Below are positions 4,768 through 17,422 of a DNA stretch of 64,000 nt, piece by piece. This DNA is from Dictyostelium discoideum. Its lineage: Eukaryota. The stretch lies in NCBI GenBank assembly GCA_000004695.1, contig CM000153.2, forward strand, positions 2,528,001-2,592,000, written 5' to 3'. Within the stretch, counting starts at the first letter, position 1. Every line of letters begins with the position of its first letter. Below the pieces are notes generated by a model that worked only from the letters and a program-made list of their open reading frames with translations, had not been told where the DNA came from and did no database searches. The translations under genes and the position numbers were made by a program.

Positions 4768-7700
4768 ATGGTTTCATCTAACACCATAACCACTACATCA
4801 AAAAATAAAAATAATAATAAAAATAATAATAAAAATAATAATAATAACTTAACTATAAATGATGTAATTAATGATATTTATGATGAAAATGGCATAGATG
4901 GAATAAATTTTGATTATTTTTTAAGTAAATTTCAAGATATTTCAAAAAAAACCAATTCATTTGAAAAATTAGTTGATGACAATGGTGATTTAGTACCACA
5001 AAAATATCAACCATTAAATTCTACTTTCCCAATGTCTGAAAGCAATTGTGTTCTTCAAATGAAATATCTCTTATGGAAGAATTGTCAGTTATTAACTCAA
5101 AAAGTAACTTCAAATAATAATAAAGAAAATGATGAAAATGTAAACAACAACAACAATAATAATAATAATAATAAAGGAAGTACAATCGATGATAATAACA
5201 ATAATAGTATCAATAATATTAATAATATTAATAAAGAAGAATCAACAATATCAAATAATAAAGATATAACATCAGATATTTTTCTTAGATTTCTATTAGA
5301 TTTATTAAAAGATCAAAATGAAATTCTAAGAGAAAAAGGATATAAATTAGTGAAAGATTTCTTTTCAAAAGTTACCATTGGCTCAATGGCTCACTTTAAA
5401 GAATCATTAGTTAATGAGGCAATCTCAATATTCATTGGAATTATTAAAAATGATAAAATCGATCAATCCAATAGATTAGATATAGCATCATCTTTAATTT
5501 CATTGGTATTGGCTAAAAATGATATTAATTTAATCTCAAAAGTTTTAAAATTAATTTTATCATTTAAATTCTTTACAAAGTATGTATACAATATATCATT
5601 TAATAAATAAATAATATAATATTTATATATTAATTATATTAATTTTAATTTTAATTTTAAAAATCTAAGTTATCCAAATATTTTAAAAATTGAAAATGAA
5701 AATTATTTACCATTGGAAGTATTTAAATTCAAGATGGATGGATATCAATATAAATTTTCAAAGGAATTTAATGAAAAAGGTAAAGAAAATGATGAATTTG
5801 TAATTAATAGTTTGGAAACTTCAATAAAGACAATTTATTCAATGACCTATGATGATGGATTTGTTTATATTCATTGTAATTTAGGTTTATTCAAATTTAG
5901 TTTATCATTGAATATGGAGTTTAAATTATGCGATTATAAAACTGATTATCATACAAATCCAGTTACATATGATTTCAATGATCAAGAGACAACAATCACT
6001 GATAAGATCATATTGGAAAGATCTTGGTTATTCATAATTGATGATCATATTTATTTTAGAAGTTTAGATATGGAACAAGGTATAATCTCTGTAATTAATA
6101 AACATACATTTGAAGAGACATTTATGTTTATTGAGAATGAATTAAATCCATTAGGTACAAATCCTTATACATTATTTCAAGATTATGAATTAAAACAAAT
6201 TGGTATTTTAGAATTACCAATTGGTTCATCAACTCCAAAAATTAGATATATAAAATTAACAACAACAAATGAAAATGATAATAATAATAATAATAATAAT
6301 AATAATAATAATAATAATAATAATAATAATAATAATAATAATAATAATAATAATAATAATATTAATGGAAAGATTACAAATGAATCAATTTTAAAACAAG
6401 TTTCATCAGATCATATTGATTTATTTAAAAATTTACAATCTATTTCATCAGTAAATTTAAAAATAAAAGATCAAGAAAATTTAAATTTATCATCATTATC
6501 AAATATTAAATCAATTTATCCTTCTGAAATGGGTGGTATATTTTATTTAACAAATTCAAATGATTTATTTTTAATTGGTACAAAGTATGTAGTATTAATA
6601 TTTAAAATAAAAATAAAATATATATATATATTAATGTCTATTTTTTTCAAAAAGTGGAATTATAAATAATCAAGATAATTTACCAACTTATTTTAAATTA
6701 CCAAATGATGGTGATATAAAGATAATAGAATTTTCAGATCCAGATTTTTATGTTCTTGACAGTGAGGGTATTTTACATATGTTGGAACCAGATGGTTTCA
6801 AAAAGATTGATGTTAATAATAATCCAATAATAGTTGATATTAGTGTATCAACCCAAAAATTATTTTGTTATACAAATAAGGGTAAACTATTAACCATTGA
6901 TAGATTGGATCCAAAGGATCAAAGATCATCCGATTTACCAATAAATATGACAATTGAGGCAATGAAATCTTTTGGATTATCAAAAGATACAGATATATTA
7001 TTTTTATTATCAAAGAATGAAGTCTATAAAGAAACACAATTCACTCGTACTAAAGAGAAATGTGAAGTTTTAGCTGATCATGGTGATGGTAAAGCATCAG
7101 AAACAACAACAATTGAAAAGTTTGATACAATCTTTGGTGGATTTTCAACTTCTATATTAATTGGTGAATTACCAAATGGTGATGGTGGTGGTGGTGGTAA
7201 TTCAGTTTGTTTCATAAAAGGTGATAATTCATTTGGACAGTTGGGTTTGGGTGATTTCAAATCTTCATTCGATGTGTACAGACAAATCAAAGATTTACCA
7301 TTCCCAATTGAAGGTACTAAATTCTATCCAAGTTTAACATTCACATTGGCTCTAACACTCGATCAAAAACTTTGGTATACTGGTAATATTAAATCATTGA
7401 AACCAGTTAATCAATTCACTCTCTTCAATGATATCTCAATATTCAATCCAGAATTAGAATCAATTAAAGATTTAAAAACTACTGAATTTGGTTTCTCAAT
7501 CTTAAAATCAAAATTACCACAACTTTATTATCGTAGATTCTTTTCAAGAATTCAATGTTATTCTTCAAATCAACATTTAGGTATTATAATTCCAAATTAT
7601 TTAAATGTTTGTGAAATTTCTAAAAAACAACAACAACAACAACAAAAACCAAATTATTTATTATTTAATAAAAAGACATTATCTTTTATTTGTTCAAATC

Positions 7701-16700: not shown

Positions 16701-17422
16701 TTGAATCACCCTCAATTCAATTGGAATGTGGCCACGTATTTCACCATGATTGTACCAAGAAATTGATTGAATCACGTTGGAATGGTCGTATCGTTTTCAA
16801 TTGTTTACAATGTCCAATCTGTAAACAAGCCATTAAACATCCATCATTGAAAACTTTAACCAATGAAATTGAACATATTCGTGATGAAATCATTCGTAAG
16901 GGTAAACTTCGTATAGAATATCAAAATCTTAATAACGACCCATTGTTATTGGCTGGTGGTAGATTCGAAGGTCGTCCAGATGATTATGTTTTGGATCAAT
17001 TCTCTTATTACCTTTGTTTCAAATGTAAACAACCTTATTTCGGTGGTCTAAATCAGTGTGCTGCTGCTGCCGCTTTACCTTCAAACTTTAATCCTGAAGA
17101 ATTGATTTGTGGTGGTTGTTCCTCTGGTGATGATCCTCAATCCATTTGTCCAAAACATGGTAAAGATTACCTCGAATTCAAATGTAGATACTGTTGTTCT
17201 GTGGCAGTTTGGTTCTGTTTTGGTACCACTCACTTTTGTGATACTTGTCATGATAACAATGGTAGACTCACTGCTCAAACAAAGTTTGGTCAATGTCCTT
17301 TAGGTCCTGGTTCTGTAGAATTACCAAAAGGTCCTTGTCCTTTAGGTTTAAAGAATCATTATGAAGCTGGTAAAGAGCAAGCTTTAGGTTGTGGTGTTTG
17401 TCGTAATGTTAAAGACTTTTAA
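4768..17422 (+). CDS. Giant MYCBP2/Highwire/RPM-1 (PHR-family) RING-Cys-relay E3 ubiquitin ligase homologue, about 4165 aa. Exons: 4768..5579, 5670..6584, 6655..17422
   Basis: Three consecutive plus-strand ORFs join through GTATGT…AG introns (5580..5669 and 6585..6654) with phase 2 preserved (aa|t = Asn at both junctions). Total CDS is 12495 nt, which is divisible by 3. RCC1-like blades occur near the N-terminus (…VCFIKGDNSFGQLGLGDFKS…). A PHR domain is present (ERFGNSNSCWSYSGYNIDGISFTCDKDIYVKGIGVYGDKG…). A DOC/APC10 domain is present (…TFWEAPSNSSITIKMEPVRSIYEVCVYIDNS…SIRVRQLRVL). A B-box-like zinc finger is present (HCQGCNLNLCNECDRFLH). A RING-H2 is present (CMICWTE…CGHVFHHDC…CPICKQ). The C-terminal tandem-cysteine region (…[35 protein letters not shown]…ALGCGVCRNVKDF) matches, from memory, the human MYCBP2 C-terminus. 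Internal poly-S, poly-T, poly-N and K/D/E-rich low-complexity blocks are present. Stop TAA at 17420-17422. Confidence 0.8.

Follow-up and report, generated by a model that had tools for sequence, protein, structure and literature searches.

A probable orthologue of animal PHR proteins in Dictyostelium discoideum, with a C-terminal RING-Cys-relay module

MYCBP2, the founding RING-Cys-relay (RCR) ubiquitin ligase, drives programmed axon degeneration. The locus described here raises the question of whether a relative of this enzyme, with its catalytic module and the domains upstream of it, is encoded by the amoebozoan Dictyostelium discoideum. We examined 64,000 nucleotides (nt) of the forward strand of this genome (GCA_000004695.1, contig CM000153.2, positions 2,528,001 to 2,592,000; hereafter the window). 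All coordinates refer to the whole window, and residue numbers to the 4164-amino-acid (aa) spliced product. From sequence comparison we judge, with a probability of about 0.88, that the plus-strand locus at 4768-17422 is orthologous to the PHR proteins of animals (MYCBP2/PAM, Highwire and RPM-1) and corresponds to D. discoideum gene DDB_G0284853, with three exons encoding one protein of 4164 aa. The initial annotation, made from the DNA letters alone, had proposed a MYCBP2/Highwire/RPM-1-type RCR ligase in an amoebozoan, and this identification was found to be correct.

The gene is not new, having already been annotated and named in print. DDB_G0284853 was called "a mycBP2/Highwire-like protein" by Luscher et al. 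2019, who listed two of its peptides (PMC6743453). Both 13-mers matched the spliced protein exactly, one in exon 2 (Table 1) and the other at aa 4097 in exon 3. When the OCRL homologue Dd5P4 was immunoprecipitated, mass spectrometry showed the protein to be enriched, in a manner that depended on the F&H-binding residue W620; direct binding was seen with neither of the candidate F&H peptides (PMC6743453). It was also recorded, as Q54P29, in the Spy-dependent O-fucose proteome (PMC11507795). Because mass spectrometry detected it in both publications, the protein is made in cells. A literature search for functional studies of DDB_G0284853 found none, and a broad search for MYCBP2 in unicellular lineages returned nothing informative.

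The C-terminal catalytic module

With the last 257 aa of the product a match was obtained to 5O6C, the crystallised RCR module of human MYCBP2, extending over residues 4-262 of the 263-residue chain (E = 1.9e-82). The two modules are 49% identical, with one short gap that falls in the tandem-cysteine (TC) domain. The RING, the helical linker and the TC zinc domain were found to be contiguous, as defined for RCR E3 ligases (EC 2.3.2.33), and on sequence grounds the C-terminal ~260 aa form a complete RCR module. Similarity to animal proteins continues upstream of this module, as the C-terminal 450 aa, covering the RING, the Cys-rich region and the B-box-like finger, were 43% identical to the Highwire of the cricket Gryllus (BLASTP; E = 1e-130).

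Catalytic residues were mapped by taking position i of the 5O6C chain as human residue 4377+i, a numbering that is valid because the expected residue types land on C4520, E4534, C4572, F4573, F4578 and H4583. The residues of the esterification site, reported by Pao et al. 2018 to be human E4534, H4583, F4573, F4578 and F4586, agreed with 5O6C in their numbering. Four of these five are conserved (E4058, H4108, F4098 and F4103), and F4586 is replaced by N4111. The initial annotation had proposed a check on conservation of the relay cysteines and threonine-binding residues of human MYCBP2; it was observed for both cysteines, the Glu, the His and two of the three pocket Phe residues, and failed at the third Phe. 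The relay cysteines, the Glu, the His, the two Phe and the Cys/His columns, including the zinc ligands, were invariant in an alignment of human, insect, nematode, D. purpureum, ciliate, Anaeramoeba and Macro-fusion sequences. The mediator loop is of equal length in human and Dictyostelium. The human enzyme carrying the C4520S substitution is catalytically dead (PMC12664034). Judged by sequence, the protein shows the contiguous layout and the relay cysteines that define the RCR class, with four of five esterification-site residues, and it shares the greater part of the features that define PHR proteins.

Domains upstream of the module

The domains follow the order RLD (the RCC1-like domain), PHR, DOC, (B-box), RING-H2 and TC, which matches the metazoan order. 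Animal PHR proteins carry two PHR domains. The initial annotation's "full domain complement" was borne out insofar as all five of its listed domains are present in metazoan order, and was overstated insofar as one PHR domain is demonstrable here versus two in animals. The profile searches that it proposed for the spliced protein placed PHR and RING above cutoff; the RCC1 match remained below cutoff, and APC10/DOC was matched only in the orthologues and not in the protein itself.

The best matches of the PHR domain in the PDB were the PHR domains of MYCBP2 (3GBW; 4.6e-14) and BTBD2 (3NO8; 2.6e-6). A second PHR domain was considered at aa 1075-1187, where an in-register hhalign match was obtained at a probability of only 14.6%, with no Pfam or PDB match, and this candidate is not supported.

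When the DOC region was used as the HMMER query, three relatives were found that are full-length (3368-3603 aa), belonging to Synstelium polycarpum, Acytostelium subglobosum (XP_012756017.1) and Cavenderia fasciculata (XP_004357892.1/F4PXT8); the D. purpureum relative (XP_003292796.1) is a fragment. The Cavenderia and D. purpureum relatives are named "RCR-type E3 ubiquitin transferase" in UniRef. The full-length orthologues share the domains of the D. discoideum protein and, in a four-way alignment, are collinear with it end to end. Their lengths fall 560-800 aa short of it, chiefly through fewer low-complexity tracts, and their DOC and RLD regions are less diverged and score better against Pfam. 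Similarity across the middle ~2000 aa was detectable in dictyostelids only.

The DOC region of the D. discoideum protein itself had no Pfam match, and sequence and profile searches of the PDB with it gave nothing relevant. In the Acytostelium and Cavenderia orthologues, however, the corresponding stretch passed for the Pfam family ANAPC10 (P0122 and P0123; 24.9 and 23.1 bits versus a cutoff of 21). From one sequence, AlphaFold2 gave an unusable model of the region (predicted local distance difference test score, pLDDT, of 45.8), whereas the model from the four-sequence alignment had a core pLDDT above 80. When the predicted fold was compared with the PDB by Foldseek, APC10 took all of ranks 1-9 (E = 4e-8 to 8e-7), and the next matches were yeast Doc1 and the DOC domains of CUL7, HERC2 and HECTD3. 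The predicted fold and the orthologues, through which alone the domain is visible, indicate that the DOC/APC10 domain is real.

The RCC1-like region was assessed in a similar manner. The Pfam WD40_RLD family matched the D. discoideum protein at E = 2e-4 and orthologues at 4.4e-10 and 2.9e-7, all under the gathering scores. A profile of the region built from the four orthologues retrieved from the PDB nothing but RCC1-like propellers, led by RPGR (5e-11), then HERC1, RCC2, UVR8, RCC1 and HERC2, and this signal came mostly from the single canonical blade. By sequence, an RCC1-like N-terminal domain is present, with one canonical blade and degenerate ones, and a seven-blade propeller is a candidate fold only. 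Word-indexed homologue searches with the DOC and RCC1-like regions produced no matches. The B-box-like finger scored below threshold against zf-B_box of Pfam.

A further block, termed the "ESSHPY" domain, contains 39 positions that are invariant over four dictyostelid genera, and few other blocks of the protein are as well conserved. No Pfam family and no PDB sequence match were found for it. It was also noted that homopolymers cluster at 11400-13900 (aa about 2100-3000), comprising S48, T22, N27, N22 and two S13 runs, together with long acidic and lysine-rich stretches. O-fucosylation is reported to favour Ser/Thr-rich runs, and detection in the O-fucose proteome is consistent with the long Ser/Thr homopolymers (S48 and T22).

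Alternative readings and the gene model

Several observations weigh against the assignment of this locus as a PHR orthologue. Animals retain Phe at the third position of the threonine pocket (human F4586), which is Asn here and H, Y, I, A or a gap in the other non-animal sequences, so that Thr may be favoured over Ser to a different degree. The number of demonstrable PHR domains is one. No entry in the protein collection is identical to the 4164-aa product, and the product called in a second assembly (GCA_054883475.1) is 13 aa shorter than our model, so that model details or repeat-tract lengths vary between records.

The pocket substitution leads to an alternative in which the RCR module is active with a nucleophile preference unlike that of human MYCBP2, using serine, lysine or a non-protein hydroxyl instead of threonine. 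The alignment of F4586 with N4111, and the variation of this position outside animals, are what this proposal is built on. The rest of the site, however, is invariant (the downstream Cys, F4098, F4103, H4108 and E4058). Pao et al. 2018 reportedly assigned F4586 its role in the threonine pocket, and likewise the roles of the other catalytic residues. We consider such a changed preference unlikely.

It could also be argued that the protein was assembled independently and merely carries an RCR module, like the small Macro-RCR or IBR-RCR proteins, rather than being a true PHR orthologue. RCR modules do occur in unrelated architectures, and the dictyostelid-restricted middle of the protein would fit such an origin. 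However, five or six domains are shared with animal PHR proteins in identical order, the best PDB match of the PHR domain is the PHR domain of MYCBP2 itself, and the similarity to Highwire covers, beyond the RING, a further ~200 aa on its N-terminal side, B-box included. Independent assembly is therefore highly improbable, and orthology to the PHR proteins is preferred.

RCR modules were also observed in smaller proteins. Those from Dreissena polymorpha (P0095) and two metagenomic sequences (P0083 and P0088) are ~480-495 aa long and have an N-terminal Macro (ADP-ribose-binding) domain fused to a complete RING and TC module, with both relay cysteines conserved. MYCBP2 is thus not the sole RCR architecture. 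Ubiquitination of ADP-ribose hydroxyls has been reported for DELTEX ligases, and by analogy the joining of a Macro domain to an ester-forming E3 suggests that ADP-ribose hydroxyls may be ubiquitinated here as well. The ciliate Moneuplotes crassus (P0109) and the metamonad Anaeramoeba flamelloides (P0115 and P0118) possess RCR modules in proteins of 500-650 aa, preceded in P0109 and P0115 by an RBR-like RING-IBR, and no RLD, PHR or DOC domains were found in these three proteins. The catalytic module is therefore not confined to animals, a statement that applies to the module and leaves the full PHR architecture aside. The earlier view that the architecture is otherwise known from metazoans needs amending for the module, which occurs in ciliates, Anaeramoeba and Macro fusions.

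The gene model was read from the DNA and from the orthologues. The GC content of the window is 15-35%, typical of Dictyostelium, and an open reading frame (ORF) of 3547 codons could not arise by chance at about 25% GC. An ORF scan of the plus strand gave frames at 4768-5610, 5713-6669 and 6779-17422. When joined as 4768-5579, 5670-6584 and 6655-17422, these comprise 12495 nt, or 4164 codons and a stop, with no internal stops. The product had first been given as 4165 aa, a figure that includes the stop codon; the C-terminal strings quoted with it, including ALGCGVCRN, are present in the spliced protein. Both introns are canonical GT..AG by reading of the DNA, and the four-way dictyostelid alignment is uninterrupted at both exon junctions, for example at SFKFFT/NYPNILK (the stroke marking the junction) versus SSKYLANLPTNLK. 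The proposal that the three ORFs are spliced into one product is thereby supported, and by sequence they constitute one gene with three exons and two introns. The second assembly is 99.82% identical to window positions 8103-29122, with 8 gaps in 21 kb, and calls the locus as a single gene with a product of 4151 aa; tract lengths are not equal in the two assemblies.

An assembly gap of 80 N (4537-4616) lies ~150 nt 5' of the start codon, within a region (4513-4616) that includes odd homopolymers (t13 c4 g14 t5) and probably arose as an artefact of assembly. In the dictyostelid orthologues the N-terminus falls near aa 30 of the model in the alignment, which indicates that no upstream exon has been lost despite the gap. 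Antisense ORFs at 10665-10985 and 12619-13146 were considered as genes and discarded as low-complexity artefacts. A reading of the ORFs as three separate genes, or of the locus as a decaying pseudogene, draws on the gap 150 nt before the ATG and is already largely refuted by single-protein orthologues in three other dictyostelid genera that align across both junctions, by published exon 2 and exon 3 peptides assigned to one gene, by detection of the protein by mass spectrometry and by an intact 12.5-kb frame.

The neighbours of this single gene are ordinary chromosomal genes (Table 1). A 327-aa ORF at 18123-19106 (+) opens with a hydrophobic segment that is signal-like and closes with a hydrophobic C-terminus; its ends are rich in Cys and its core is poly-Ser, and its sequence looks like that of a secreted or glycosylphosphatidylinositol-anchored surface protein; no Pfam hit is on record for it in GCA_054883475.1.

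Table 1. Features of the DDB_G0284853 locus, residues of its catalytic site and neighbouring genes.
Feature	Position (nt)	Strand	Residues	Remarks
Exon 1	4768..5579	+	aa 1-270 plus 2 nt	ATG in A-rich context
Intron 1	5580..5669	+		90 nt, GTATGT...TAAG, 7% GC, in-frame stop inside
Exon 2	5670..6584	+	aa 271-576	holds peptide GFVYIHCNLGLFK at aa 334
Intron 2	6585..6654	+		70 nt, GTATGT...AAAG, 10% GC, shifts reading frame
Exon 3	6655..17422	+	aa 576-4164 plus stop	
RCC1-like region	6505..7600	+	aa 550-891	spans intron 2; one canonical and several degenerate blades
Canonical RCC1 blade	7202-7300	+	aa 759-791	motif GDNSFGQLGLGD, GDNSFGQLGLG
PHR domain	9602..10066	+	aa 1559-1713	Pfam PF08005, E = 2.1e-33, 116.5 bits
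"ESSHPY" domain	10586..10924	+	aa 1887-1999	~115 aa, opens with ESSHPYEE; family unassigned
DOC/APC10-like beta-sandwich	14723..15079	+	aa 3266-3384	orthologue Pfam matches and predicted fold
B-box-like zinc finger and Cys-rich pre-RING region	16172..16621	+	aa 3749-3789 and 3837-3898	collinear with insect Highwire
RING-H2	16673..16834	+	aa 3916-3969	zf-RING_2 28.4 bits versus cutoff 27.3; aligns to MYCBP2 RING in 5O6C
Helical linker, RING to TC	16838..16930	+	aa 3971-4001	gapless versus 5O6C
TC domain	17006..17419	+	aa 4027-4164	5O6C and family alignments
Upstream relay Cys	17057-17059		C4044	human C4520
Glu			E4058	human E4534; conserved
Downstream relay Cys	17216-17218		C4097	human C4572
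Phe			F4098	human F4573; conserved
Phe			F4103	human F4578; conserved
His			H4108	human H4583; conserved
Asn			N4111	human F4586; not conserved
RalGAP-beta-like N-terminus	607-2988	-		
Armadillo-RhoGEF-PH protein	24979-27903	+		
P-type ATPase	30370-33216	+		
tRNA-Phe(GAA)	35537-35610	+		
ComC-like protein	45463-48447	-		
ABC transporter	51815-55927	-		

Proposed role and comparison with known systems

The mechanism proposed for the Dictyostelium protein is drawn from the animal enzyme (review PMC9120709), and its catalysis, hydroxyl specificity and cellular role are inferred by analogy. The RING-H2 would serve as the docking site for a ubiquitin-charged E2, from which ubiquitin would pass by transthiolation to C4044 on the flexible mediator loop. 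It would then be relayed to C4097, in the CFGTTHFC motif, and discharged onto a substrate hydroxyl as a Ser or Thr ester, with H4108 and E4058 presumably acting as a base pair. The RCC1-like, PHR and DOC domains, together with the long helical and low-complexity regions, may form a scaffold that recruits substrates and partners.

The association with Dd5P4/OCRL hints at a role in endolysosomal traffic, and the interaction may be indirect. A further, distinctly doubtful suggestion is that the amoebal PHR protein takes part in membrane traffic linked to OCRL/Dd5P4, either endolysosomal or macropinocytic, that control of trafficking or autophagy was the ancestral task of RCR ester-ubiquitination, later co-opted by neurons, and that the N4111 pocket perhaps admits a different range of hydroxyls. 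Because this organism is haploid, lacks neurons and is amenable to genetics, its complete orthologue would offer a simple system for the RCR machinery, in which the machinery's action outside neurons, its hydroxyl substrates and its ancestral partners could be addressed. As the gene is annotated and named in print, the value of this analysis is that of a pointer to an unexploited non-neuronal model and not of a discovery.

Comparison with known systems places the protein closest in layout to the large animal ligases. Human MYCBP2/PAM (5O6C, 6T7F), Drosophila Highwire and C. elegans RPM-1 are, like the Dictyostelium protein, giant single polypeptides with the order RLD, PHR, DOC, B-box, RING-H2 and TC, and the relay cysteines and the His/Glu pair are common to all. 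The Dictyostelium protein differs from them in its single demonstrable PHR domain, in the change of F4586 to Asn, in a very degenerate RLD and in huge poly-Ser/Thr/Asn tracts, and it is found in an organism without a nervous system. Regions corresponding to those through which the animal proteins bind SKP1-FBXO45/FSN-1 (FBD1), RAE1 and Myc were not identifiable in it. The predicted fold of aa 3266-3384 is like those of APC10/Doc1 and the DOC domains of CUL7, HERC2 and HECTD3, while sequence identity to these is only 11-19%. The small RCR proteins (Macro-RING-TC, the RING-IBR-RING-TC protein of Moneuplotes and the Anaeramoeba "mycbp2") share the RING and TC domains with invariant relay cysteines. 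At 480-650 aa and without RLD, PHR or DOC, however, they are not PHR proteins, unlike the Dictyostelium protein.

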